A stretch of 64,000 nt of DNA. It comes from a virus. The notes under the pieces are model-generated. The model was not told the DNA's origin, searched no databases, and saw only the letters and a list, made by a program, of their open reading frames with translations. The stretch's first letter is position 1. The number at the start of each line of letters is the position of its first letter. Positions 3,570-63,812 of this stretch are shown here, one piece after another. Both the position numbers and the translations under genes were made by a program. The stretch lies in the UHGV virus genome UHGV-0277504, one strand, 5' to 3'.

Positions 3570-3989
3570 CTACTTCTCCTCCTCTTCTTTTATATTAATA
3601 ATTAATTCGTCAAAACCATGTATATAGGTATATGATTGATAATTATTATTATCACCGTATCCCTCTTCATAAGGAACAGCTATTGTTTGTCTTGATTCGT
3701 CAGAATATACTAATGTAACATGAGTAATATCATCAAATTCAGTAAGTCTATTGAATATTACTTCCTCATTTTCAAAATTAAAAGGGTTATATCGTAATTT
3801 TGTCGATTTTTTTACAATAAAGTAAATATCTTGTGCACTTTTATACGTTTCTACTTCCTCGTCTTCATAATTTAAATGCTCAATACTATCAGAAATACCT
3901 TTAATATGAAGACCTCTAATATATTTTGATTGTATTTCCATACTATCGCAATTTTCAAATGTTAAAATAATACTTTTTAATTTACTCAT
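3570..3989 (-). CDS. hypothetical protein
   Basis: ORF with RBS. Confidence 0.5.
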   Translation of the reverse strand: MSKLKSIILTFENCDSMEIQSKYIRGLHIKGISDSIEHLNYEDEEVETYKSAQDIYFIVKKSTKLRYNPFNFENEEVIFNRLTEFDDITHVTLVYSDESRQTIAVPYEEGYGDNNNYQSYTYIHGFDELIINIKEEEEK

Positions 3990-9890: not shown

Positions 9891-9913
9891 ATTTTCCTCC
9901 TATAATGTGTATC

Positions 9914-10150
9914 TTACCCTGCATCATAATGATTATCATTTAAATCATAATCGGCATCTTTAGGTCTAACCCTATCCCAATTTACACTTGCTTTAAACTT
10001 AGGTCGAAAATCCCCATTCCCATCAGCATATATAGAAACTGTTCTTGATGCGCCTAAGTCACCTAAATACTCCATCTTATCTAGCATTGACATAAATTCA
10101 TTAACCCATCTTTCTTCCATTTCAACTTCAATTGTAAATTTCTTTTTCAT
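9914..10150 (-). CDS. hypothetical protein
   Basis: ORF preceded by the conserved motif ACATACATTTTATAGGAGG. Confidence 0.45.
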   Translation of the reverse strand: MKKKFTIEVEMEERWVNEFMSMLDKMEYLGDLGASRTVSIYADGNGDFRPKFKASVNWDRVRPKDADYDLNDNHYDAG

Positions 10151-10176
10151 AATTATTTCCTCCTATAAAATGTATG

Positions 10177-10683
10177 TTATTCCCAGAAACCCCACTCATT
10201 ACTTTCTTTTTCTTTTATGGTATAGTCATAACTAACCTCAAAATTCTCACTATCAAGAAATTCTTTTAGCCTTTTCTTCCGATTTATTAAAACATGTAGA
10301 TTTCCATTCTTAGCAATTTGCGTGTCTTGATAACTATTTAAGTACTCGTTATCCCAATTCCAATCTACAAAATACTCCTCTTTTGAATTATCATCATATG
10401 CAACTTCTACACTTGCTATATCTGCATGTTGAATTAGTCTTTTAGAACAACTAAGGCTTTCTTCATCTTCTTCATCAAATAGACCTAAAGTTTTAATCGT
10501 TTCTGGATTAATAATATCAAAATAGATACTATTAGCAGTTTGGAGCTTAGCAATGCTATTGATTGCATTTCGTCTTACACTTATATCTATATCCGCAATA
10601 ATTATATTTGCTAAATGCTTGGTTGGAATCTTGATGTACTCACAATTTTCTAAAACTAATACTATTTCTTTTACTTTTGTCAT
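10177..10683 (-). CDS. hypothetical protein
   Basis: ORF preceded by the conserved motif. Confidence 0.5.
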   Translation of the reverse strand: MTKVKEIVLVLENCEYIKIPTKHLANIIIADIDISVRRNAINSIAKLQTANSIYFDIINPETIKTLGLFDEEDEESLSCSKRLIQHADIASVEVAYDDNSKEEYFVDWNWDNEYLNSYQDTQIAKNGNLHVLINRKKRLKEFLDSENFEVSYDYTIKEKESNEWGFWE

Positions 10684-10698
10684 ATTTTATTCTACTCC

Positions 10699-10860
10699 TT
10701 ATAAAATGTGTGTTTTAACGCCACTCTTTTCTTCAAAAAGTATCAATATATCTAAGTCTCCTATCGCACTAAACATTAAATTTCTAAAATGTTTCTTTTC
10801 ATCTGTTGACATATTTTCAACATCTCTCATCAGTTCTTTAAATATTTTTTCATAATCCAT
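10699..10860 (-). CDS. small hypothetical protein (53 aa)
   Basis: ATG at 10858-10860 preceded by GGAGGAGTAATT; stop overlaps the conserved intergenic motif. Confidence 0.3.
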   Translation of the reverse strand: MDYEKIFKELMRDVENMSTDEKKHFRNLMFSAIGDLDILILFEEKSGVKTHIL

Positions 10861-10886
10861 AATTACTCCTCCTAAAAGTTTTCTAG

Positions 10887-11195
10887 TTAAGTTAAATCAA
10901 TTTTATATAACTTCTTATTAATTTTATGTTCTTCAAATTTAAAACCTACACCCTTCTCGTAAAATCCCTCTAACTTAACTTCTACTGTCTTAGGGCTTAA
11001 AACATATCTAGTGCCTAAAGAATCTTCATAACTACCTTTAGTTTCAAGTAGTATTGTTCCTTTTTTTAGTAGGGTATGACAACCATGATTAGAGTATATA
11101 TCTTCTTTAACTACTTTATATTCTTCTATTTTGTTATCTAATAACCAACTATACATACTTTCTAGCACAATAGAATCTACATTTTTAACTATCAT
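10887..11195 (-). CDS. hypothetical protein
   Basis: ORF preceded by a variant of the conserved motif. Confidence 0.5.
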   Translation of the reverse strand: MIVKNVDSIVLESMYSWLLDNKIEEYKVVKEDIYSNHGCHTLLKKGTILLETKGSYEDSLGTRYVLSPKTVEVKLEGFYEKGVGFKFEEHKINKKLYKIDLT

Positions 11196-24143: not shown

Positions 24144-24185
24144 ATAAAAAACTCCTTTTGTTTTGATACTTATATTATACTACAC

Positions 24186-27191: not shown

Positions 27192-27622
27192 TAAGAATCC
27201 TTCCTTTTATTTGTTTGTTTTCTAATTTTAAATATAAAAATTAGATGTGTACTTTTAAATGTTCTTTGCTCTCTAATACTTAGTTTTCCTATTAGTAAAC
27301 CACCTTTATGAACATAATAAAGTCTATCAGTATGTGTTATTTCTTGGTTTTTATATTTCTGTTTTAAGCTTAACATATTTTCATTTATACCTGTGGCTTT
27401 ACTAATTAAATCAATACCATATTTTTTTTGTAATTTAACATCAGTTGAAGATATATTATTAAACTGTTTAGTAAATAGTAATTTATACATAGTTGTTGAT
27501 TTATCTTTGTTAGGGTCTCTATGATTGTAAAACTTTGTATTCCCTGGTGATGGTGTAGGTGCAAAGTTAACTGGCATAAGTTTTGCTTTTCTTCTTTTAT
27601 TCATTGATAGACTCAACTCCAT
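27191..27622 (-). CDS. hypothetical basic protein
   Basis: ORF overlapping neighbours. Confidence 0.45.
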   Translation of the reverse strand: MELSLSMNKRRKAKLMPVNFAPTPSPGNTKFYNHRDPNKDKSTTMYKLLFTKQFNNISSTDVKLQKKYGIDLISKATGINENMLSLKQKYKNQEITHTDRLYYVHKGGLLIGKLSIREQRTFKSTHLIFIFKIRKQTNKRKDS

Positions 27623-40380: not shown

Positions 40381-42609
40381 AGGGTTACTACTGGCTAATC
40401 TTCCTGTACTTGTAGTTGTTGATGAGAAACTACCATGTAGTGTTTGTGTGTTTTTATTAACCATTCTAGGAAGCTTATGAGTAAATGAGTTTCGTTTTGT
40501 TCGTATAGAGGCGTAGTATAATAAGTCTTCTATTAGTTCTTTGTTATCTTCTGTTACTTCTAAATCAGATAATATATATCCTAGAGCTTTAGTATCTGTT
40601 TTATAGTCTTCCCAACTAATATCTTGCTCTTTCTTTTTCTCAAAAGAGGTAGCTTTAACGTAGTTCTGGTCATAAGGTAATTCAAAACCTAATATTTTAT
40701 ACAATAGTTCACTTTTATGGTCTCCTGACCCTATATTAAATTTCCACCCATCATCTTTATACTTATTTCTGTACTTCTCTATTTCTGGGTCTCTTTCTTT
40801 TTTAGGTTTACTAAACTCTTCTAAACCTAGTTCATATAAGTTATATTTTTCTTCTTCAAATTCTTTTACCGCCCAATGTTCTCTTATTTTATTTTCAATT
40901 TTAGTTAATTCTAATTCATAGGCTTTGTCATTCTTTTCCATGTAATCTAAATCAGCATATAGACCATTACTCTCTATTCTTGCTAGGGTTCTATCTAACC
41001 TTGGATAATCTTGTTGCCATAACTTTATTGCTTTAGGTCGTTGTTGGTCTTTTAATTTTTCTAGTATATTAGAATAAATTCTACGACATACATCAACGTC
41101 ACCACTAGCATAAGGGTGCATTAGTTCTAAAGGAATCCAATCATAATTAAACTTACCACCATCAACTTCATTATATACATCTGTATGTTTTTTAAACCTA
41201 TTAATTAATTCTAAAGCTGTTTTAAGTGTATATTCTTTACCTTCATCACTTAAAGACATATACTCATCCGAAAGCTTAGCTACCTCTTCAAACTCTGAAT
41301 CACCCATTAACATTGTTTTTGTTAATCGTTCTGGGTGTAAACCTAATTGAATATATTGCTTATCAGTACTATTCATTTCTGTTTTTTGCTCATATTTATC
41401 AAGCTCTACTTCTTTATCCACACTAATGTTTTCAGATAACCAATTTTTATATTCTGTTGCTTTAATATTATGTTCTTTTTTTGCAATACTCTTGTTATCT
41501 TTAATAATAGTAGACATTTTTTCTGACAAGAATTTAAGTAATTTTCTACTAAACCATTTTTTAAATTCTTCTAACGGTGTGTCATACCCACCCATATCTG
41601 TAACCTCATATGCTAAGTCAGACAGGCGTTTAGAATCTGTGGTTTCTTGTGTTACAGCTAAATACCAGCCTACAAGTGTGTCTTGATTATTTTCAAATGT
41701 GTTAAATCCTAGTGTACTCATTAGGAATTTTATATCATATTTAATATTATGACCTACTTTTATATCCTCTTTATCAGCTAACCACTCTCTTAAGTAACTT
41801 AGTATCTCATCAATATCTTTTTGTCCGTTTTTCCAATTAAAATCAGATTTATAAATAGGTATTGTGACACCTTGTCCGTTTTTCCAACTTAAAGATACTA
41901 CTAAAACTTTACTTCCTGCTCTATCTGGTTTTAGTGAATTAGTCTCTGTATCCCAAGCTGTTATATCTATACCATCATTATTATCTTTTTTTACTTCTTT
42001 AGTAAAAATCTCTCTTACTCTTTCAATATCTGTTACAAGTTCATATGACACTTTTTTAGGTTTAAAGGCTTCTTCTCCATTTTTTACAAATTTACCTAAT
42101 AAATTAAGGTCTGTAACTACATGACGTTCAGCATTTTTATTAACATTAGTGTATTCAATACTATAAGTAGGTAATACCCAAACATCTTTACTTGTATTTT
42201 CAGTACTTAATGTTATTTTGTGAGGTACACCTCTTACTGAACCTAATTTTGTAACGTTTAGTAAAAATTTAATACCTAGTTTACCTAAAGGAACAATAAT
42301 ATCATAATTATTATCAATAATTCGTTTAGTTAATTCTGAGTAATAAGGTTTAACTTCTGTTTGCTTTACATCTTGGTATTTAACAATCTTACCGTAATTA
42401 TTTGTTACAGGTGTTGGTATAGCCTTATACACAAAATCAATATCATAATCTTTTCTAGAATTATCTCTTACTAAACCTGAACATCTCTCTAATAACATTT
42501 TTAAAGTTTTACCATTTTGAGTATTAAAAAGATTTAATCTTGTTTTATTATCATCTGTAACTTTAAAATGTTCTTCTCTTATGTGGTCGTATAAAATTAA
42601 AGCTTTCAT
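40381..42609 (-). CDS. polA: DNA polymerase (family A), exon 1
   Basis: Likely true start ATG 42607-42609 with strong RBS AAGGAGAAG; ends at the O-helix-preceding TGRLASSNP. Confidence 0.8.
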
Positions 42610-42640
42610 ATTTATCTTCTCCTTACACTTGTTTAAATAT

Positions 42641-42669
42641 ATGATACCATAGAATATCTTTAATGTCAA
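42641..42669 (-). promoter_or_regulatory. putative promoter TTGACA-N17-TATCAT for polA
   Basis: Plus tgtcaa at 42664-42669; weak -10. Confidence 0.4.
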
Positions 42670-42703
42670 TAAAAAAAGAGACAAATTTTTTAATCTGTCT
42701 CTC
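42669..42703 (-). terminator. terminator hairpin (agagaca/tgtctct) with T-run on the minus strand
   Basis: 7-bp stem, A-run 42670-42677 on plus. Confidence 0.5.
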
Positions 42704-42989
42704 TAAGTCTTTCATTTGCTTCTTCTAAGTATTTCATAGGTTTAATCTTAAGTACTTTCTTACTAGGTATAGTATAGTACTTCTTATCTAATCCATTCCA
42801 TGCTCTTTTTTCTGGTTTTTCAATTACTTCTATTTGATATAATTTATGATTTTTTATTTTTTCTTGCCCTTCGTCAATGAAATCAACGATAGCTTTTGAT
42901 TCTGCTTCTAATATTTCTTCTATATCCTGTATGTAGTATCCTGTTTCCTCTGATATTCTTCTAGCTATATCTTTTCTATTTACTGTCAT
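42690..42989 (-). CDS. putative HU/IHF-like DNA-binding protein
   Basis: 99-aa protein with an N-terminal KDIARRISEETG...IEEILEA...VDFI pattern resembling HU/IHF. Confidence 0.4.
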   Translation of the reverse strand: MTVNRKDIARRISEETGYYIQDIEEILEAESKAIVDFIDEGQEKIKNHKLYQIEVIEKPEKRAWNGLDKKYYTIPSKKVLKIKPMKYLEEANERLRETD

Positions 42990-42997
42990 TATTATAC

Positions 42998-43723
42998 CTA
43001 CAGTTTAACATTCTTTTGTTTTTTTAATTTAGTTATCTCATTTGTAACATCTTGGTGGTCTTCTTCACTAGTAAGGATATAGATATACATTTTCCATACA
43101 GATAGAGATACTCTAATTCTTTCAGCAAAATCAATTTTATATTCAGGTTTTAGTACGTAACCTTCACCATCAAAATCATAAAATTTTTTTTGTTTTTCTT
43201 CAATTGTTCTTATCTTAGGGAATGTTAAGTGAACCTCATCAACATTAGTTTTAATTGGATGTAAATTTCTAATAATTTCATAAGGATTTACATAAGGAAG
43301 TACTATTGAAATATCAATTATTACTTTAGTTCCCATAAAGGATAATGCTATATTATCAATTTCTTTATCTGAAAAACGCTCACGCATTTTATAAACAACT
43401 GCTGAATTTTGGTTTGTAGATAAGTCTTTAAATACATAATAAGGTATAATAGAATCTGTATAATAGTAAACACCGCCTCCATGTTTACATACTTTCTCAA
43501 TAAGCCTATCGTTATTATACTTCTCATTAAATAACATATAAGTATTATCATCTTTGAGTATATATCTACTAGACTTAGTAGCTACCTTATCTAGATTTTT
43601 TTCTATATCCTCTTCATTTGCATGTGTTATTTTTATTGATTTACTTATTTCTTTTTTATCTTTAGTATGAATATTGAAATATCTATCACTATTATATATA
43701 GTTAGTGTTTTATTTTTTGCCAT
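42998..43723 (-). CDS. hypothetical protein
   Basis: ORF. Confidence 0.5.
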   Translation of the reverse strand: MAKNKTLTIYNSDRYFNIHTKDKKEISKSIKITHANEEDIEKNLDKVATKSSRYILKDDNTYMLFNEKYNNDRLIEKVCKHGGGVYYYTDSIIPYYVFKDLSTNQNSAVVYKMRERFSDKEIDNIALSFMGTKVIIDISIVLPYVNPYEIIRNLHPIKTNVDEVHLTFPKIRTIEEKQKKFYDFDGEGYVLKPEYKIDFAERIRVSLSVWKMYIYILTSEEDHQDVTNEITKLKKQKNVKL

Positions 43724-43788
43724 AAAAAAACCTCACTTCTTTGTATAAATTAATTATACCATAAAAGTGAGATTTATCAAAATTAAAT

Positions 43789-44112
43789 TTAAATATTTTC
43801 TAAATCTTTAAATTTCATAGGGTTTACATCGTCACCTTCTAAAGTAACTTTAAGTTCTCCGTTTTTAAAACAAAGTAACAAAGGAGTACTCATAACATTA
43901 AATTTCTCGATAGCTAACTCTCTATCCACATCTTCATCATCTAAATTTAATGAGAAAATAGGTTTTGTAATATCTCCAGTCTTTTCAAATTCAGGTAAGA
44001 TATTTTTTAAAATCTCACATTTAGCACATCCGTCTTGTGAAATTAATACAATAGCGTCATCATTGTATGAGATTTTTGTATTTAAGTCTACTAAGCTTTC
44101 TAATTTTTCCAT
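43789..44112 (-). CDS. thioredoxin/glutaredoxin-like (NrdH-like) protein
   Basis: CAKC (CxxC) active-site motif near the N-terminus; position next to the nrd genes. Confidence 0.5.
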   Translation of the reverse strand: MEKLESLVDLNTKISYNDDAIVLISQDGCAKCEILKNILPEFEKTGDITKPIFSLNLDDEDVDRELAIEKFNVMSTPLLLCFKNGELKVTLEGDDVNPMKFKDLENI

Positions 44113-50355: not shown

Positions 50356-50416
50356 ATTGTTTCCTCCTTTTAATTCTTAATTATTATTATACCACAAATA
50401 ATAATATTATGCAAGT

Positions 50417-56438: not shown

Positions 56439-57878
56439 CTAAATTTCAATTCCTCCAAAATTATTATTTATAGTTTCTATCTTACTTTGTTTTTTATCAA
56501 AAGTATTAGGTCTATCTTTACCATTATCTGATAATAATTGTTTATGCTCTGCTTCTTCTTCAGGTGTCTCATCTCTTACACGCATTTTACTTGGTTCTAC
56601 TTTTAAGTGAACAAATCTTTCACCTGTATTTGAACTATTTCGTATTTTATCTAAATAAAGTCTTAAGTAACCGTTTTTAAATTCTTCATCTTTTTGGTTT
56701 ACTGCAAGTGCTACTTCCACAGCATTTAATATTTTTCTAGAACCTTCTACATGCTCACTTGTAATAACATCAGCACCGTATGCTGTTCTATTAGTTTGAG
56801 CTAAAGTCCAGCATACAAACTGGTATTGTTGTGCTAATCTTCGAATCTCTTCAAATAATTTACCTCCAGCATCTGATTCTGAATAATTTCTTGCATAAGG
56901 GTTACGCATCAAATGTGGGTAGTCAATAATTACAACATCAATACGTTTATCGTACTTTATTCTTGTATTTACGATTAACTGTTCTAAGTCATTAGGGGAT
57001 ACTTGCTGTGGCATGTGTTTAGATAAAAAGTACTCACCAAAGAAAGGTCTATTTTCTTCATATTTCTTTTGTAAAGCTTTATATACATCTTCATTTAATT
57101 GCATATTCTCATCAATTAAATGCTTTTTCTCTACACCTAACATTTGTTGCTCTGCTCTTAAAATCATTCTATCCATGTTCTCCTCTAGTGCTACATATAG
57201 AACATTTAAACCAGAACGTACATAGTTCTTAGCTAGATTAGAAGCCATCAATGACTTACCTCTACCTGTGGGAGCCATAACTAATCCTACTTCACCTCTA
57301 GCAATTCCTCCTTCTATTTGCTCATCAATAGAAGCAAACCCTGTAGAAAATTTATTTTTAGCAATATGCTTTAACTCATGTAATTTTTTATCAGTATCTG
57401 AAAAGAAATCAATAAACTCACCACTAGTACCAGCAATATCTTTTACTTCTATTTCTTTTAATTTTTCTACAAGTTCTGTTAAATTATCAGAATCTTCTTG
57501 TTTATTTTCTATAATAAATTTAGTCAAAACATTTTTAGACATTTCTGTTTTAACATATTTATTTATTTCACTATTTATAGAATCATCTTCATTATCTAAC
57601 TTAACTTTTGTTAAGTTATCCATATATTGTATTGTATTAGTAATAGTATCTTCTTCACATTTATTTTTTGTCATTATATCTTCTATTTTAATAGCTAATG
57701 ACTCTGTAGATATATGTTCTGAAGTATGTGATTTTCTTTTTATTGCTGTATAAATATATTTCATTTCCTCAGATTCATCTGAGAATAGATGCTTAGGTAG
57801 GTTAGTTAAAACCTCTCTAGCAAAATTAATATCATTCATTGATTTATGAAGGATGACTTCCTTTATTCGTTTACTCAA
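56439..57878 (-). CDS. DnaB-like replicative helicase
   Basis: C-terminal RecA-like domain with GLVMAPTGRGKSLMASNLA (Walker A) and surrounding DnaB-type motifs. Confidence 0.6.
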   Translation of the reverse strand: MSKRIKEVILHKSMNDINFAREVLTNLPKHLFSDESEEMKYIYTAIKRKSHTSEHISTESLAIKIEDIMTKNKCEEDTITNTIQYMDNLTKVKLDNEDDSINSEINKYVKTEMSKNVLTKFIIENKQEDSDNLTELVEKLKEIEVKDIAGTSGEFIDFFSDTDKKLHELKHIAKNKFSTGFASIDEQIEGGIARGEVGLVMAPTGRGKSLMASNLAKNYVRSGLNVLYVALEENMDRMILRAEQQMLGVEKKHLIDENMQLNEDVYKALQKKYEENRPFFGEYFLSKHMPQQVSPNDLEQLIVNTRIKYDKRIDVVIIDYPHLMRNPYARNYSESDAGGKLFEEIRRLAQQYQFVCWTLAQTNRTAYGADVITSEHVEGSRKILNAVEVALAVNQKDEEFKNGYLRLYLDKIRNSSNTGERFVHLKVEPSKMRVRDETPEEEAEHKQLLSDNGKDRPNTFDKKQSKIETINNNFGGIEI

Positions 57879-58060
57879 ATCTTCTCACTGCTACTAAAAA
57901 ACATACTTAAATGTATTTAGAAAGTTTCCCCTTTCACTGTGGTTAGTTGTATTTACAACTAGGTCTAAAAACCACTCCCAGAGCGTTAATTCCGATGTAG
58001 CCCACCGTATTTAGTACATTTAAAGTAAGTTACTAATTTTTAGTAACTTTCTCCTTTCTT
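57879..58060 (-). ncRNA. structured GC-richer non-coding segment immediately 3' of tnpB; candidate omega-RNA/IS right-end
   Basis: 182 nt with no ORF, locally GC-richer than the genome, perfect hairpin aagttactaa-ttttt-agtaactt at about 58022-58047. Confidence 0.35.
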
Positions 58061-59167
58061 TTACACTAGTACTGTGTATTCTTTTGCCTGTTTTAAATTA
58101 ATACTTGCATTTATATCTCTATCTTCTATTGTACCACAATTTTCACATTTGTAAACTCTTTTATTTAAAGGCATTTTTTGTCTATTTCCACACTGGTTAC
58201 ATATCTGACTAGATGGATAAAATCTATCAACTTGCCTTAGCTCTATCCCATATTGATAGCATTTCCACTTCAACCATTCAACAATGTAACCTAATCCTAT
58301 TTGCTGAAAAGCGTTAGACAATCTTTTATTTTTCATCATACCTTTAATATTTAAATTTTCTATAATAATAAATTGTGGGTTTTCTTGAACAATAGATAGA
58401 ATATTTTTTCGTTTAATATCTCTCTTTAAATTAGATATTTTTCTGTATAGTCTTTGTACTTTTAATAATTGTTTAAACCAATTATTAGATTTCTTTTGTT
58501 TTCTACTTAATTTTCTTTGCTGTCTTTTTAATGATTTATTTAGTTTAATAAGTCTTTTGTTCTTTCTTAAATCTGTTATTTTAACACCTGAAGGTGTGAA
58601 CAATGTGTCTTTTAAACCTAAATCTATACCTATTCCTTCTGTTTGAAGTTTCTTAAAGATAATCTTAGGTTCTTCATCAACTAAAACAGAAACATAGTAC
58701 CTATCAAATTCTTTTGATATTGTTGCTGACTTTATATTGTGTTTTGGTATATAACCTTTTTCTTTTAATCTTACCCATTTTAAGTTTGGAAGTTTTATTC
58801 TATGTCTTTCTATTTTAATAGTTCCTATTAAGTAGTAAGAACCATTACTTTGTTTTTTCTTAAAATTAGGGTACCCACTATTATAATTCCAAAACCTATT
58901 ATAAGCATTTTCTGCATTTGCCATGGCTTGTTTTATAGCTTTGGTACTCACTTCTTTAGTCCACTTTTTATCTTCATTATTTGGAATAAATTCATTGTTA
59001 TACCATACACTAAACTTCATATGATTTAAAAATTTCAAACCATTGTCATAACGAATTTTATTAATTTCTATAAATTTATTATAAACACTTCTACAAGCAT
59101 TAATTGTTTTATTAATTTCTTTTATTTGTTTTTTATTTGGTTTTATCTCTGTTTTATATCGTATCAT
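58061..59167 (-). CDS. tnpB: IS605-family TnpB (RuvC + zinc finger)
   Basis: RuvC-I IGIDLG, E in IIENLNIKG, CNQCG...CENCG zinc finger, RuvC-III DRDINASINL. Confidence 0.8.
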   Translation of the reverse strand: MIRYKTEIKPNKKQIKEINKTINACRSVYNKFIEINKIRYDNGLKFLNHMKFSVWYNNEFIPNNEDKKWTKEVSTKAIKQAMANAENAYNRFWNYNSGYPNFKKKQSNGSYYLIGTIKIERHRIKLPNLKWVRLKEKGYIPKHNIKSATISKEFDRYYVSVLVDEEPKIIFKKLQTEGIGIDLGLKDTLFTPSGVKITDLRKNKRLIKLNKSLKRQQRKLSRKQKKSNNWFKQLLKVQRLYRKISNLKRDIKRKNILSIVQENPQFIIIENLNIKGMMKNKRLSNAFQQIGLGYIVEWLKWKCYQYGIELRQVDRFYPSSQICNQCGNRQKMPLNKRVYKCENCGTIEDRDINASINLKQAKEYTVLV

Positions 59168-59180
59168 AATTACTCATCTC

Positions 59181-60794
59181 TTATTGATAACCACTCTCTC
59201 TTTTCAATCTATTATAATCTAGCATACCATAAGAAGTTAATGGAATCAAGTCCTCTAAGTTATATTTAGTTAAAATATGTTTAACATCTTTGATATTTAC
59301 TTCATAACCCATGAAGTCAGCAAACATTCTCAAAACATAATAGGTAGAACTATTCTTACTAAGTACAAGGTAGTCATAAGCTACTGAAGTAAGATTTGAA
59401 ATATCTTGCTTAGTTAAATTTATTAAGTCTGCATTATCAGATACTAATCCTATGTTAATTAAATTATCTTTTAATGGGATATTATTAAGTTCTAATTCTG
59501 ATATTATATGGTGTCTTTGCATAGGGAATAAAGAAGTACGTACATTACTTGAAAAACTAGTTGGTGCATACTCATTAATAATAAGTTGCTTAACAAATTT
59601 ATTAATTACTTTTGCTTCTTCTTTTTCCATATCTTTAATTGATTTATCTACTTTATCACTAAAGTTTAATAAAGTCAAGTGTTTATTATCTCTTACAAAA
59701 CCGAATTCTAAATCCTCTAAATCTAATGCTTTTTCAAACATTGTGTCAATATCATGTATTTCATCATTTAATTTTGACATATACATTTGCTGTAACTGAT
59801 TTAATGCTGGATTATTCTTATATATAGTTGAATCTACTAATAACTCAGTATCTCCTAAATGTCTCTGTGTGTTATTTACATTTTTCTTTATAGTATCTAT
59901 ATATTTATAGTATTGTTCAAAATATTTATCAGAATTAAAATAATTAGGCATAGGAATATTTATACTAGAATTTGTATTTTCATACACATAAGATACATTA
60001 TTAAATACATTTTGCATATAAAGAAAAACATTAAAATTATTTAAATCTTTTATTTTATTATAAAAATTATAGAAAGTGTTAAATGTTTTACTACCAAAGA
60101 AATTATCGGATACACTATTTTTAGATAAAAATACAACTAATTGATTTTTATAAAACTCTATATACTTTTTATGATGTTTTACTTGGTATGGTTCTAAGTC
60201 ATTTTTTTCTATTCTTCTTTCATGAAAATCTCGTCTAGCGTTCATGTGTGCTATACAATACGTATCATAGAGTTTGCATAATATATAAGCTTTATAAAAC
60301 CCTTCAGGGTCATAAGACATATTAAATACTTCTTTAGAAGGATAATTCATATTGCTTAGCTCTAAATTCATATCTAGTATAATACGTCTATTCTTATCTT
60401 TGATAGCCTTATATTTTGCCATCTCTTGTTTAGTTCGTCTTCTATTTTCTTTTCTTTGATAAGTATATGTAGGGAAGTGTTTATCTCTTAAATCTTTAGC
60501 ATATTTCTGTGCTGATTGTATAATATTATCGTTACTCTTATTAAATTCTACAAGGTCTTCTGTATTAAATCTCTCTTTAATAAGTGTAATAACAATACCA
60601 CCGTTGTGACCTTTTTTAGTAGCTACTGCTATTTTATTCTCTTCTTCTAATTTTTTAAGATTGTTATTAATAGTTGATACAGATACACCTACTGATTCAG
60701 CTATTTTTTTCTTTGTTGATATAGTAAATATATTGTCTTTAGAATTAGATTCTAAATAGTCTAGTAGTTTTCTTTTTGTCTTAACACTTCCCAT
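59181..60794 (-). CDS. HTH DNA-binding protein, possible replication initiation protein
   Basis: N-terminal HTH IAESVGVSVSTINNNLKKL; location between the two helicases. Confidence 0.45.
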   Translation of the reverse strand: MGSVKTKRKLLDYLESNSKDNIFTISTKKKIAESVGVSVSTINNNLKKLEEENKIAVATKKGHNGGIVITLIKERFNTEDLVEFNKSNDNIIQSAQKYAKDLRDKHFPTYTYQRKENRRRTKQEMAKYKAIKDKNRRIILDMNLELSNMNYPSKEVFNMSYDPEGFYKAYILCKLYDTYCIAHMNARRDFHERRIEKNDLEPYQVKHHKKYIEFYKNQLVVFLSKNSVSDNFFGSKTFNTFYNFYNKIKDLNNFNVFLYMQNVFNNVSYVYENTNSSINIPMPNYFNSDKYFEQYYKYIDTIKKNVNNTQRHLGDTELLVDSTIYKNNPALNQLQQMYMSKLNDEIHDIDTMFEKALDLEDLEFGFVRDNKHLTLLNFSDKVDKSIKDMEKEEAKVINKFVKQLIINEYAPTSFSSNVRTSLFPMQRHHIISELELNNIPLKDNLINIGLVSDNADLINLTKQDISNLTSVAYDYLVLSKNSSTYYVLRMFADFMGYEVNIKDVKHILTKYNLEDLIPLTSYGMLDYNRLKRESGYQ

Positions 60795-60809: not shown

Positions 60810-63800
60810 TTACATTTTTCTAATTTCAAATTCTTCTTCCTTATAAATTTTCTCACGCTCTTTTGAATGGTGGAATAAAAATCTATTAGTCATATCTGCA
60901 AAATCATAAATTTGTGTTGTATTATCATCTTTCTTTTTACGTAAAGCACGACCTACACGTTGTAATACTTGTCTTAATGATTTACCACCTGCTCCTAGTA
61001 TAAGTGAGTTAATACCTGAAATATCTACACCCTCATCTATTAAGCTTGTAGCAATCATTACTTTTAATTTACCGCTACGCATATCATTTAGTTTTTGTTT
61101 ACGTATCTCAGAATCAACTTCACCATGTAAAAAATAATGTTCTACATTTAAACCATCTAGTAATTCCGATATATTATTTCCATGGTCTATAAAGTTTACT
61201 ATAATAAGTATCCCTTTGTCCTCATTATACCACTTCTCTGTTAATTTTGCAATAAGTTTATTCCTAAAATTATTATTTATTATACCTTTCTCATAAGCAA
61301 CTCGATACTCATCTATATTATCAATATCATTAGGGTTGGCTATAGGTATAATATTTATTGTAGGTTTAGCTGAATGACCTTCTTCTATAAGTTGTTTATT
61401 CGTTACTCTAGATATAACATCTCCGAATAAACCTTGCATACGCATCCACAAAAGCTCATCTTTTTTATCAATGGAGCCTGTTAAAGCTATTCTATATAAC
61501 GCATTTTCACAAGTCATTAAATTGTTATACCAAGTATCTGATTTTGAGTGATGTGCTTCATCTACAATCATAACCGTTATAGTATCTAAAAACTCACGCA
61601 TACGATGATACTTATCATATTTTTTCTTATTCTTATTTCTTACTATATTTTGAAAGTTAGCGTTATGATTTTTTAATCTCATAAGCACTTCATTGTCATT
61701 CTTACAAGATTTATAAATACCGATAAGTTCATCTTTAACCGTTTGTTCTACTTTGGTTTTTGGTATAAAATTATCTAATAACATACCTAGTAGTTTCTTC
61801 TGGTTTGTACCTCCTTCAAACTTAGGTAAAAACTCAGTAGCAATCTTCTTACTTATATTCTGTTTAGGTGTTAGTTTAACGCCTTGTGTAGGGTCTTTAA
61901 GGTTAGCGTTAAGTGTAGGTACCATAACAACTGTTACTTGCTGTATATTAAATTGACCTGCTCCTACTTTACCTATAGGTATATTTAATCTTTGCTTTAA
62001 TCTATCTGCTGATTGATGAAAAATTTCTGTAGAACCTGTAAAGAAAGCTATTCTTTCTCCTCTTTCTAATTGAGGTAATAGTTGGTCTATAATACCACTA
62101 GCAATCTCGGTATTATGATTAACAACTGTATTAGAAATAAAACTATGTGTTTTTGGCATACATACATCGAATGTAGGTATAATCTCCTCTTCTAATACTT
62201 GTTCTACTTTCTGGTAATAGATATTCTTATCTGTTATACTTTCAAAAAGTTCTTTAATTTCCTTATCTCCGTCAGGGTATAATGCTACTACTTCTCTAAG
62301 TTTATCAATAGTAATAGTGTCTCTTGAAAGATACTTACTAAATTCTTTTTTATCTATATTTAAAGAATCTCTATATTTTTTTAGTAAATAACGTGACCCT
62401 TCTATAGTGTTTCCATAAGAACTTTTAATTTTTGTACCAATAGATAGGAAGTTCTCTTTTTGAGTTTTTCTTTGTTGTGTTTCGAATCTTAATAAAGGTA
62501 ATAATTTAATTAATTCTTTTCTATTAACTATAAGTCTATAATAGTTATTGTGTTTGTATTTTTTAACTACTTTTTCTTTACTAGTTGATACAATCCCTAT
62601 ATTAGAAAGAATAAGTTGTAAGTCTTTTATTAAATCTTTAGAAGCACTCGTAACTTCTAAGTTCTTTTCTGATATGCTGGACTCACATTCTAAGTAACCA
62701 CTTACAAATGCTAATTGAATATTTTCAGGGGCTTCCATAATACACTTAGGTATTCTTTTATCTTTTGCTACTCCATATTCAATTTTATATTTATCGTGAA
62801 ATTCCCTAGTTTTTATTGTATCATGTAAGTGTATAGTTATACCTTTAGATTCTTTATGTGTATCATAATAAACTTCCTTATTACTGAAAGTATTCCAGAA
62901 TTTAGAAACTTTATCTAGTATCTCTTTTTTATCGTTAGAAAATGACAAACGACTGTAAGAACCTAAATAACTGTCAGCTACCATACAACCTAATGCATAG
63001 GCTTCCTCTTCATTTTCTACGGTATTGTTGTTACCAAATTGACGGTCTCCTACTCTAGATACTAAAATATCTCCGACTTCAATATCTTCACTTTTTTTCC
63101 ATTTAAGATTAAAACCCTCTCTAACTAATAAGGGGTGATTATAAGTATTAACTAACTCAATACCTTTATTAGTTTTTATTCTCTTTGTAGGTTTTTCTCC
63201 ATTCTTAGTAAAATGACTAGTATACTCAACTTCACCATAACGATTTATTAATGGGTATTTTAATTCTATGACTTTTTCTTTATTATCTACTTTAACTCCC
63301 TGAGTTTCAAAAATCTCTTGAAGAGACTTATACCCTTCTGTAGTTAAAATCATAGAATCCATAGAAATACATTTACCTCCGTTTGTACTTATATGAAGTA
63401 TACCGTTAAAGTAAGTTAAACTATTGAATACAGCATCGTATTGGTAATCTCTTAAAGTTATTTGACCTACATTATCATCTAGTAAATTAATTTCCTTATC
63501 TATGTCTTCTTCAGCTAAGAAACTCTCATCACGTTCATCAGTTATTCCATATTGAAAATTATATCTAGACTGTAGCTCTCCTAATAACTCTTGTACTTTA
63601 AATAGTAGTCCTGTAGGGAATCTATCTCTATCGTACTCATAGAAATCTATATAACCATCCCACTGACCTCTTTTATACGCTGGACTATATTGAAACCCTT
63701 CCTGTCTTGCACCTAATGTTGTGTGCATCCTTTTTAAAATAATATCTTTTAAATAACTATCTCCCTCCTCAAATTCTATATAAGTATATAAGTTTTTAAC

Positions 63801-63812
63801 ATGTAATTTCAT
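60810..63812 (-). CDS. DEAD/DEAH-box (SF2) helicase interrupted by an intein
   Basis: Motif II IVDEAHH and downstream helicase motifs; Walker A ISTNGGK|T is split by a 420-aa insertion beginning with Cys and ending HN. Confidence 0.75.
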   Translation of the reverse strand: MKLHVKNLYTYIEFEEGDSYLKDIILKRMHTTLGARQEGFQYSPAYKRGQWDGYIDFYEYDRDRFPTGLLFKVQELLGELQSRYNFQYGITDERDESFLAEEDIDKEINLLDDNVGQITLRDYQYDAVFNSLTYFNGILHISTNGGKCISMDSMILTTEGYKSLQEIFETQGVKVDNKEKVIELKYPLINRYGEVEYTSHFTKNGEKPTKRIKTNKGIELVNTYNHPLLVREGFNLKWKKSEDIEVGDILVSRVGDRQFGNNNTVENEEEAYALGCMVADSYLGSYSRLSFSNDKKEILDKVSKFWNTFSNKEVYYDTHKESKGITIHLHDTIKTREFHDKYKIEYGVAKDKRIPKCIMEAPENIQLAFVSGYLECESSISEKNLEVTSASKDLIKDLQLILSNIGIVSTSKEKVVKKYKHNNYYRLIVNRKELIKLLPLLRFETQQRKTQKENFLSIGTKIKSSYGNTIEGSRYLLKKYRDSLNIDKKEFSKYLSRDTITIDKLREVVALYPDGDKEIKELFESITDKNIYYQKVEQVLEEEIIPTFDVCMPKTHSFISNTVVNHNTEIASGIIDQLLPQLERGERIAFFTGSTEIFHQSADRLKQRLNIPIGKVGAGQFNIQQVTVVMVPTLNANLKDPTQGVKLTPKQNISKKIATEFLPKFEGGTNQKKLLGMLLDNFIPKTKVEQTVKDELIGIYKSCKNDNEVLMRLKNHNANFQNIVRNKNKKKYDKYHRMREFLDTITVMIVDEAHHSKSDTWYNNLMTCENALYRIALTGSIDKKDELLWMRMQGLFGDVISRVTNKQLIEEGHSAKPTINIIPIANPNDIDNIDEYRVAYEKGIINNNFRNKLIAKLTEKWYNEDKGILIIVNFIDHGNNISELLDGLNVEHYFLHGEVDSEIRKQKLNDMRSGKLKVMIATSLIDEGVDISGINSLILGAGGKSLRQVLQRVGRALRKKKDDNTTQIYDFADMTNRFLFHHSKEREKIYKEEEFEIRKM
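62112..63371 (-). other. intein (420 aa) with LAGLIDADG-type endonuclease domain in the helicase P-loop
   Basis: Block A CISMDSMILT, block B TYNHPLL, C-terminal VVNHN followed by Thr; internal AYALGCMVADS and LAFVSGYLECES DOD-like motifs. Confidence 0.7.

Follow-up and report, generated by a model that had tools for sequence, protein, structure and literature searches.

A transposase-less IS607-family derivative, tnpB with a predicted guide-RNA gene, between two replication genes of a Staphylococcus epidermidis phage

Papers on Sepunavirus genomes name one gene of these phages a transposase of uninvestigated role, and the paper on the transcriptome of phage SEP1 holds nothing on the phage "transposase". 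What is such a gene, and what keeps it between a Rep-like gene and a DnaB-like helicase gene of a virulent phage? We address this question in the virus genome UHGV-0277504, of which a stretch of 64,000 nucleotides (nt), hereafter the window, was analysed. The host of the locus is a virulent Staphylococcus epidermidis myovirus of the genus Sepunavirus (Herelleviridae, Twortvirinae), and the 4.4 kb around the gene are 96-99% identical to phages BE25, 80A/B, phiIPLA-C1C and Twillingate. Judged from its sequence, 57888-59191 on the minus strand is a 1.3-kb derivative of the IS607 family that has no transposase, is truncated at its left end and consists of tnpB and a guide-RNA gene. We are highly confident that it represents a TnpB with an omega-RNA (reRNA) of the IS607 lineage, with the boundaries and guide given below. 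The best reading of its biology, which we consider probable rather than firm, is that of a selfish TnpB-only element homing into empty sites during co-infection; that it is active at present and spreading by homing we rate at about an even chance.

The gene encodes an intact TnpB. Three Pfam families match it, all above their gathering scores, namely HTH_OrfB_IS605 (PF12323, 1.5e-10) for the N-terminal helix-turn-helix (HTH), OrfB_IS605 (PF01385, 2.5e-19) for the RuvC core and Cas12f1-like_TNB (PF07282, 4.4e-21) for the C-terminal zinc-ribbon/TNB region, and the NCBIfam model guided_TnpB gives 242.5 bits against a cutoff of 100. The RuvC motifs read IGIDLG (D182), IIIENL (E270) and DRDINA (D351), and the zinc ribbon reads CNQCG...CENCG with both CxxC pairs present, which bears out the TnpB with RuvC and zinc finger of the original prediction. 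The nearest solved protein is the TnpB of ISFba1 (PDB 8IAZ chain A, E 1.3e-88, residues 3-366). In the HMMER alignment D182, E270 and D351 fall on D194, E290 and D371 of ISFba1, all three experimentally required there (PMC11061315); the 8IAZ chain is numbered with an offset of 3 and, as deposited, has Ala at position 371. The D-E-D triad and both CxxC motifs are invariant across 13 intact copies from Staphylococcus phages.

Comparison with TnpB-free relatives, one of the checks originally proposed, yielded both the boundaries of the insertion and its adjacent motif. The element is missing from 10 of 18 distinct sibling Sepunavirus phages; in the 10 TnpB-free records the match covers only 70% of the 4.4-kb query and falls into two adjacent pieces, which fits a gap of 1,304 bp, and the exact gap was read base by base in Quidividi, with which the 4-nt gene overlap in BE07 agrees. 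The insertion comprises 1,304 bp (57888-59191), and tnpB and the 3' segment are present or absent together. No relative was found that carries the 182 nt behind tnpB without the gene; Twillingate keeps this block, but beside a tnpB with a 334-nt internal deletion. Where the site is empty, as in Quidividi and BE07, the stop codon of Rep and the TTG start of the helicase gene overlap in the sequence TTGA. In gene orientation, the junctions read as follows.

Empty site (Quidividi): ...AAAAGAGAGAG-TG-AGAAGATTTGAGTAAACG
Filled left junction: ...GAGAG-TG-GTTATCAATAAGAGATGAGTAATT-ATG (tnpB)
Filled right junction: ...TTTTTTAGTAGCAG-TG-AGAAGATTTG...

Empty GAGAG-TG-AGAAG thus compares with filled GAGAG-TG-GTTATC...AGCAG-TG-AGAAG, and there is no target-site duplication beyond the shared dinucleotide. 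AGTG forms a microhomology at the junctions in the window, as AGTT does at the Terranova and IMG6 sites. The insertion parts the ribosome-binding region and start codon of the helicase gene from the Rep gene and breaks the translational coupling of the two, and the Rep gene now takes its final three codons and its stop from element DNA. The parts of the element and its surroundings, all on the minus strand, are listed below, where TAM stands for target-adjacent motif.

58061-59167: tnpB, intact, 368 amino acids (aa), ATG start; RuvC residues D182/E270/D351, zinc ribbon C323/C326...C341/C344
59168-59191: left-end remnant GTTATCAATAAGAGATGAGTAATT, 24 nt, recognised by alignment with the 3' end of KSAP7 tnpA and from the left-end deletion series
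59192-59193: left copy of the TG common to both junctions (right copy 57886-57887), a candidate serine-recombinase crossover core
59194-59198: TAM-like motif 5'-GAGAG-3' in the left flank, within the last Rep codons, directly 5' of the guide target in empty phages
58048-58060: spacer AAGAAAGGAGAAA, 13 nt, from the tnpB stop to the first conserved helix, the RNA start being set by analogy with ISFba1
57888-58047: predicted omega-RNA scaffold, about 160 nt, ending ...UAGUAGCAG, from the 13-copy alignment, RNAalifold, pair counts and duplexfold
57887-57868: predicted 20-nt guide and self-site UGAGAAGAUUUGAGUAAACG, the first flank sequence after the right end, spanning the helicase TTG
56439-57878: DnaB-like replicative helicase gene (Pfam DnaB_C), TTG start at 57878-57876, downstream neighbour of tnpB
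59181-60794: Rep-like winged-HTH gene, upstream neighbour, its C-terminus changed from ...RESEKI* to ...RESGYQ* by the insertion

As first described, the 182-nt block at 57879-58060 is non-coding, lies between the tnpB stop and the helicase TTG and is GC-richer than its surroundings, if slightly (0.32 against about 0.21-0.29), and a 13-nt gap (59168-59180) separates tnpB from the Rep-like gene. The last 9 nt of the block, 57879-57887, are flank and form the start of the guide; the element's right end is 57888.

The proposal that this structured 3' segment is an omega-RNA scaffold gains support from sequence conservation, covariation and the fact that conservation stops exactly at the insertion boundary. 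The 182 nt fold better than shuffled sequences (z = -2.4). A fuzzy regular expression for the right end was too noisy and was replaced by anchored extraction and MAFFT, which aligned 18 copies, 13 of them distinct, from Sepunavirus, Silviavirus, Baoshanvirus and Kayvirus phages. Conservation past the stop codon ends at ...TTTTAGTAGCAG (also read ...TAGTAGCAG), with GCAG in all copies, and beyond this right end the flanks of copies at different sites are unrelated. For the 13 distinct copies RNAalifold gives 39 pairs with 96% of cells paired; compensatory change affects 9 pairs and 32 cells, whereas controls slid by 1-3 columns never exceed 8 cells, the observed covariation score was reached in none of 500 shuffles, and the distal 7-bp hairpin alone has four covarying pairs. 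A long-range helix, whose 5' strand is the first conserved helical segment past the stop codon, joins GUUACUAAAAA to UUUUUAGUAGC in the last 11 nt before the flank. This complementarity of the scaffold's 5' and 3' parts recurs in 15 of 15 copies, in phiSA12 and Golestan-105 with different sequence on both strands, and its duplex energies (duplexfold) range from -9.4 to -15.6 kcal/mol, shuffles giving about -6 +/- 2. The other helices are a hairpin CGGUG/CAUCG and a RAGATH-18-like core made up of P1 (CUCU/GGGG), P2 (GUGG/CCAC) and the distal 7-bp hairpin.

The RAGATH-18 motif is a hallmark of IS607 reRNAs. Rfam scans of 57000-60000 and 57860-58100 at E<=10 detected neither RAGATH-18 nor a group I intron and yielded chance-level matches alone (snoRNA, miRNA, SAM-V). 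The RAGATH-18 model (RF03064) likewise has no match in the KSAP7, SEP1, phiSA12 or Macrococcus copies; it scores 52-72 bits downstream of TnpBs that are 35-48% identical to the window TnpB. From the 94-nt core that the Staphylococcus copies have in common we derived a covariance model, R1. Its single match in the window is at 57917-58010(-), with 113 bits; R1 also matches more than 30 RAGATH-18-type loci with E 6e-9 to 1e-2, and its match encloses the Rfam match wherever both were run (3683-3789 around 3710-3780 at locus L014, for example). Because R1 matches RAGATH-18 loci at these enclosing positions, the window RNA is predicted to be a divergent RAGATH-18-type reRNA; the covariance-model search suggested at the outset came up empty with the Rfam model and made the connection to RAGATH-18 loci with R1. 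By eye, one can make out the outer part of the motif (CUCU-GGGA-GUGGU...ACCAC-AGUGAA-AGGGG), and direct reading shows a plain 7-bp hairpin instead of the interior E-loop AGUAG...AAAA. The element is a further IS607 TnpB with a RAGATH-18-type reRNA, an already known kind, and its RNA variant escapes the Rfam model.

The original prediction had placed the gene in the IS605 family; the serine-recombinase TnpA of its relatives, the G-rich motif and the closeness of ISFba1 TnpB reassign it to the IS607 lineage. In the copy of Silviavirus KSAP7, 86% identical, tnpB is preceded by an overlapping open reading frame (ORF) of 196 aa, and in that of the Staphylococcus plasmid SAP020A, 75% identical, by one of 197 aa. 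Both are TnpA proteins with a MerR HTH and a Resolvase (serine recombinase) domain, and they score 210 bits (KSAP7 orf79) and 224 bits (SAP020A_036) with NF033518, the NCBIfam equivalog model of the IS607 family transposase, at a cutoff of 110. The left end of KSAP7 is about 100 nt long and has a TTGACA promoter. From there the copies form a series of growing left-end deletions.

IMG7, JDF86/Golestan101: left end kept, tnpA shrunk to a mini-ORF
Terranova: about 107 nt, degenerate
IMG6: 41 nt
SEP1: 35 nt
Window: 24 nt, about 20 of them from the tnpA 3' end

Every copy at the window's site has the same 24-nt stump, which holds the new Rep stop codon (59181-59183) and some 20 nt from the 3' end of the lost tnpA; the left-end motif TAACTGTTATTAAATTTGTATAC..TTGACA, seen in KSAP7, IMG7 and JDF86, was not found in the window copy. 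The early impression that there was no room for a left end is correct as regards the full left end of about 100 nt, which has been deleted with promoter and tnpA, and overlooks the 24-nt remnant. The absence of TnpA noted then holds for the whole window (tblastn), in which tblastn, blastn and R1 found no second tnpB and no second omega-RNA either. At three of the four verified sites the left flank is exact to the motif plus two nt despite the loss of most of the left end; at SEP1 three nt of it are missing. The SAP020A element (Staphylococcus sp. CDC3 plasmid, 41968-43850), complete and IS607-like with TnpA, TnpB and an RNA of the same type, is carried by a mobilizable plasmid, and its left junction, GAGAG-TT, resembles the window motif; it could serve as a reservoir and as a source of TnpA in trans. 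A scan of GTDB species representatives found no chromosomal copy in Staphylococcus, which is weak evidence, as the scan used peptide patterns and one genome per species; the nearest copy in it is from Macrococcus, at 59%.

How would such an element tell its target from itself? The predicted guide 20-mer occurs once in the window and covers the helicase TTG at 57878-57876, in agreement with the earlier expectation of an overlap with the helicase 5' region, and the same 20 nt directly follow GAGAG in the empty-site phage Quidividi. Four insertion sites have been sequenced in both filled and empty states. In their empty alleles the five nt before the target are AGGAG at the SEP1 and Terranova sites, TGGAG at the IMG6 site and GAGAG at the window site, and in all four the right end places AGCAG at this motif position; AGCAG is kept in every Staphylococcus-phage copy with a canonical right end. 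Left junctions alone, which give less secure readings, suggest AGGAG for JDF86, GAGAG for SAP020A and AGGAG for Macrococcus. AGGAG is the TAM determined for ISFba1 and for 18 of 22 tested strains (PMC11061315), and ISFba1 K80, K83, N61, N62 and Y117 are conserved in the window TnpB in the HMMER alignment. A relaxed TAM such as NRGAG is plausible. At eight of nine insertion sites a co-oriented gene has its start codon 6-12 nt downstream of the right end, so that the adjacent motif would be the Shine-Dalgarno sequence of this gene. Of the 132 AGGAG in the window, 44% precede the start of an ORF of 50 aa or more by 5-12 nt; for control pentamers the figure is 4-12%. The window is also the empty allele for the three other sites, at about 50365-50368 (SEP1), 24150-24156 (Terranova) and 27615-27618 (IMG/VR contigs) on the minus strand. 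These empty sites show (A/T)GGAG, then 8-12 nt, then a start codon; the SEP1 site adjoins the primase gene, and the IMG site is occupied in two IMG/VR contigs.

From these parts we propose the following course of events. The element inserted between the purine-rich, Shine-Dalgarno-like GAGAG and the TTG start of the helicase gene, in the same orientation as the replication operon. As it has no room for a promoter of its own, transcription of tnpB and the RNA would depend on read-through from the Rep gene. On the model of ISFba1, TnpB would bind the scaffold of about 160 nt starting some 13 nt past its stop codon, whose 3' end would run into the flank and so yield the guide UGAGAAGAUUUGAGUAAACG, giving a processed RNA of about 180 nt. 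The complex may then recognise GAGAG together with the 20-mer, the predicted substrate in empty-site phages being GAGAG+TGAGAAGATTTGAGTAAACG; only genomes of phages that lack the insertion have GAGAG and 20-mer combined. Immunity of the carrier is expected because the AGCAG of the right end, with C at -3, occupies the motif position. In a co-infection, the empty allele would be cleaved and recombinational repair from the carrier would copy the element in, a form of homing or gene drive that involves no transposase.

The population pattern is in line with an element of this kind. TnpB appears to be under purifying selection despite the loss of tnpA and the left end: pairwise ratios of nonsynonymous to synonymous substitution (dN/dS) range from 0.07 to 0.34 among the 13 intact copies, and at the same site they are 0.18 for window and BE25 (dS 0.10), 0.12 for window and IPLA-C1C (dS 0.40) and 0.10 for IPLA-C1C and BE05 (dS 0.38). 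Identity between tnpB alleles at this site is 89-91%, while the flanks (530 nt and 330 nt) reach 98-100% against filled and empty phages alike. The window tnpB is itself a mosaic of two alleles, with nt 1-200 resembling the same-site phiIPLA-C1C allele (95-99%) and nt 401-1100 sharing 96-100% identity with the SEP1 copy, which occupies another site in the genome; this implies that paralogous copies have undergone gene conversion. Purifying selection together with exchange of alleles, polymorphic presence and now and then a decayed copy is what a selfish element typically shows while its lineage is still active.

Several observations weigh against homing by an active nuclease and have to be set beside this evidence. 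The GAGAG of the window departs from AGGAG at -4 and -5, no single change is tolerated in the ISFba1 TAM (PMC11061315), and N121/N122, which read -4 and -5 in ISFba1, are replaced or deleted in the window TnpB (HMMER alignment). Low dN/dS could come in part from gene conversion by active paralogues, and decayed copies occur in Twillingate, MR003, Golestan-105 and PALS_1. A copy without TnpA and a full left end cannot transpose, and a promoter scan of the region found 25 sites against 23.6 expected, that is, chance level. Nor are exact left junctions at three of four sites expected of random deletion; a TnpA-mediated deletion between the left crossover site and an internal pseudo-site is a candidate explanation that would account for them.

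Two alternatives concern what the element is, and we find both barely credible. The 3' block might be a mere terminator or untranslated region of tnpB: in the Twillingate annotation the first hairpin of the scaffold is labelled a terminator, and there is one terminator-like site, at 57985-57973. A terminator here, however, would cut off the essential helicase gene downstream, and it would leave unexplained some 160 conserved nt, covariation in several helices and a core homologous to those of RAGATH-18 reRNAs. An IS200/IS605-type element with an HUH/Y1 TnpA and single-strand "peel and paste" transposition is suggested by the "IS605" in the Pfam domain names and by NCBIfam, whose IS200_TnpB model outscores IS607_TnpB; both belong to the narrow "exception" models and both scores are under their cutoffs (260.9 bits against 425 and 140.7 bits against 350). 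Against such an origin stand the full-length relatives with their serine recombinase in place of a Y1 TnpA, an adjacent motif that is G-rich rather than AT-rich, the IS607 TnpB of ISFba1 as closest solved protein and an RNA of RAGATH-18 type, reported only with IS607 TnpB.

The other two alternatives concern what the element does. It may be a stranded relic, landed by TnpA (from a SAP020A-like source, for example) and left as a functionless passenger after the loss of tnpA and left end, so that its presence or absence reflects ancestry and ordinary phage recombination and not nuclease-driven homing. We regard this as unlikely, although it would fit a window that has no TnpA and only 24 nt of left end, the non-canonical motif at this site, the 334-nt deletion in the same-site copy of Twillingate with the frameshifts of other copies, and a mosaicism which shows that ordinary recombination moves this DNA. 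A dead element would not be expected to show the conservation we see: copies at this site, all with the truncated left end, give dN/dS values of 0.10-0.18, none of the 13 copies deviates in triad or zinc ribbon, the RNA has retained compensatory changes, and the right end keeps its single motif mismatch (AGCAG). Domestication by the phage, which the original prediction named beside a TnpB-only element, seems to us more doubtful still. Here the complex of TnpB and RNA would exclude competing Sepunaviruses by cutting in their replication module, or would tune helicase expression through binding to the leader or ribosome-binding region of its own helicase gene, in the manner of TldR-like repressors. 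The guide does cover the helicase translation start, the insertion does break Rep-helicase coupling, purifying selection persists without a transposase, and cutting a competitor and homing are not mutually exclusive (PMC13565253). Yet the catalytic triad is intact, unlike that of TldR, 10 of the 18 distinct sibling phages live without the element, copies of the same build sit at four or more unrelated sites with whatever flank as guide, the self site has no motif, and the Silviavirus Rep/helicase junction has no match to the guide. Of the two options first offered, "TnpB-only" therefore stands, and "domesticated" yields to the intact triad, the polymorphic presence and the paralogues at unrelated sites.

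The locus can be compared with several known systems. It is closest to the ISFba1 TnpB-reRNA of the IS607 family (PMC11061315; 8IAZ), with which it shares a protein aligned over residues 3-366 with the triad in register, an RNA lying wholly past the stop codon with a 13-nt spacer, a scaffold of about 160-187 nt, a guide from the flank, a homologous core RNA (R1) and a G-rich TAM, AGGAG being found at the SEP1b and Terranova sites and, from the left junction alone, in JDF86. It differs in that Rfam RAGATH-18 misses the Staphylococcus-phage RNA (E<=10 on 241 nt), in the 7-bp hairpin that, on direct reading, stands in place of the interior E-loop part, in the non-conserved N121/N122, and in being a copy without TnpA and with a 24-nt left end in a virulent phage. 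The IS607 TnpB of CboIStron (PMC10690162) likewise has a serine-recombinase partner, found here in full-length relatives, and a dinucleotide at both junctions. Its right end, TCGG, mimics the target TGGG except at -3, a mismatch that provides self-avoidance (PMC10690162), as RGGAG or GAGAG compares with AGCAG here. Cleavage of the vacant site by TnpB drives retention or homing in CboIStron, and by analogy we propose the same for the element described here. Unlike CboIStron, the locus has no group I intron (Rfam), its dinucleotide is TG or TT rather than GG, and its TAM is another one.

More distant is the TnpB of ISDra2 (IS200/IS605; 8EXA/8H1J), which has the same protein fold family (E 9e-45) and also takes its guide from the right flank; its omega-RNA, however, overlaps the 3' coding part of tnpB, its TAM, TTGAT, is AT-rich, and its partner is a Y1 HUH TnpA. 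Among phage elements, the free-standing homing endonucleases of T-even phages (SegF, SegB, Mob) are comparable, as nuclease genes between conserved phage genes whose presence is polymorphic in close relatives and which spread in co-infection with co-conversion of flanks, as would be expected here. In contrast to these, the target would be read by RNA, and self would be told apart by interruption of motif and target rather than by protein-read variants. The proposed mechanism corresponds to the category "transposon non-restorative homing" of a 2026 review (PMC13565253). TldR proteins, nuclease-dead phage-encoded repressors (PMC10705468), are also phage-borne TnpB homologues with a guide toward the 5' region of a gene; they have lost the RuvC residues and are fixed by a partner gene, whereas here the triad is intact and the site polymorphic.

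Transposase-independent homing of TnpB has been proposed conceptually (PMC13565253), and for plasmids there is a report of insertion sequences acting as an RNA-guided gene drive (PMC11870625); a demonstration of TnpB homing in a phage was not found in the searchable literature. As a wider hypothesis, which we hold tentatively and with a little less than even confidence, an IS607-derived lineage in virulent Twortvirinae phages of Staphylococcus may have given up transposition altogether, its members being pure TnpB and omega-RNA homing elements that insert between Shine-Dalgarno sequence and start codon, use the ribosome-binding site as their required motif and drive through phage populations by cutting empty alleles in co-infections. 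If so, with different phages filled at different sites, natural phage pairs should show reciprocal drives; as a further step, a guide over the helicase translation start would also modulate helicase expression. Carrier and empty pairs at four or more sites make these phages a natural test system for homing between virulent phages, and the phage of the window carries the element at the Rep/helicase site and has empty alleles at three further ones. Sepunavirus phages are candidates for phage therapy, and a "transposase" gene worries developers; the gene is a predicted RNA-guided nuclease with a fixed, phage-directed guide, in a copy that is unable to transpose. The RAGATH-18 variant defined here marks a gap in the Rfam model, and these nucleases are compact (368 aa), with a TAM that may be more relaxed than AGGAG.

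Some minor observations concern the same locus and its relatives. A promoter-like site at 58128-58155(-), in the zinc-ribbon coding region about 65 nt before the tnpB stop, consists of TTTACA, a 16-nt spacer and TG-n-TACAAT, an extended -10, and could drive the RNA independently. The same-site copy of Twillingate (L002, 2123-2152 and 2227-2934) retains an ORF of 235 aa without E270 and the first CxxC, and its RNA block is 98% conserved. The gene that follows in the replication module, for a UvsW-like helicase (60810-63812, minus strand), is split by an intein with a LAGLIDADG endonuclease domain (Pfam Intein_splicing, LAGLIDADG_3), a second selfish element in the same module. KSAP7 appeared at first to hold paralogues of this lineage in four places; one is a usable copy, and the other three are distant TnpB genes of 27-34% identity (9891-11144, 58772-60057 and 132009-133118). 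Two of these distant genes sit between fragments of the portal gene and of an exonuclease gene, R1 matches lie downstream of two of the three (L171 10074-10191 and L172 31853-31980), and the distant TnpBs may be intron-associated and IStron-like.

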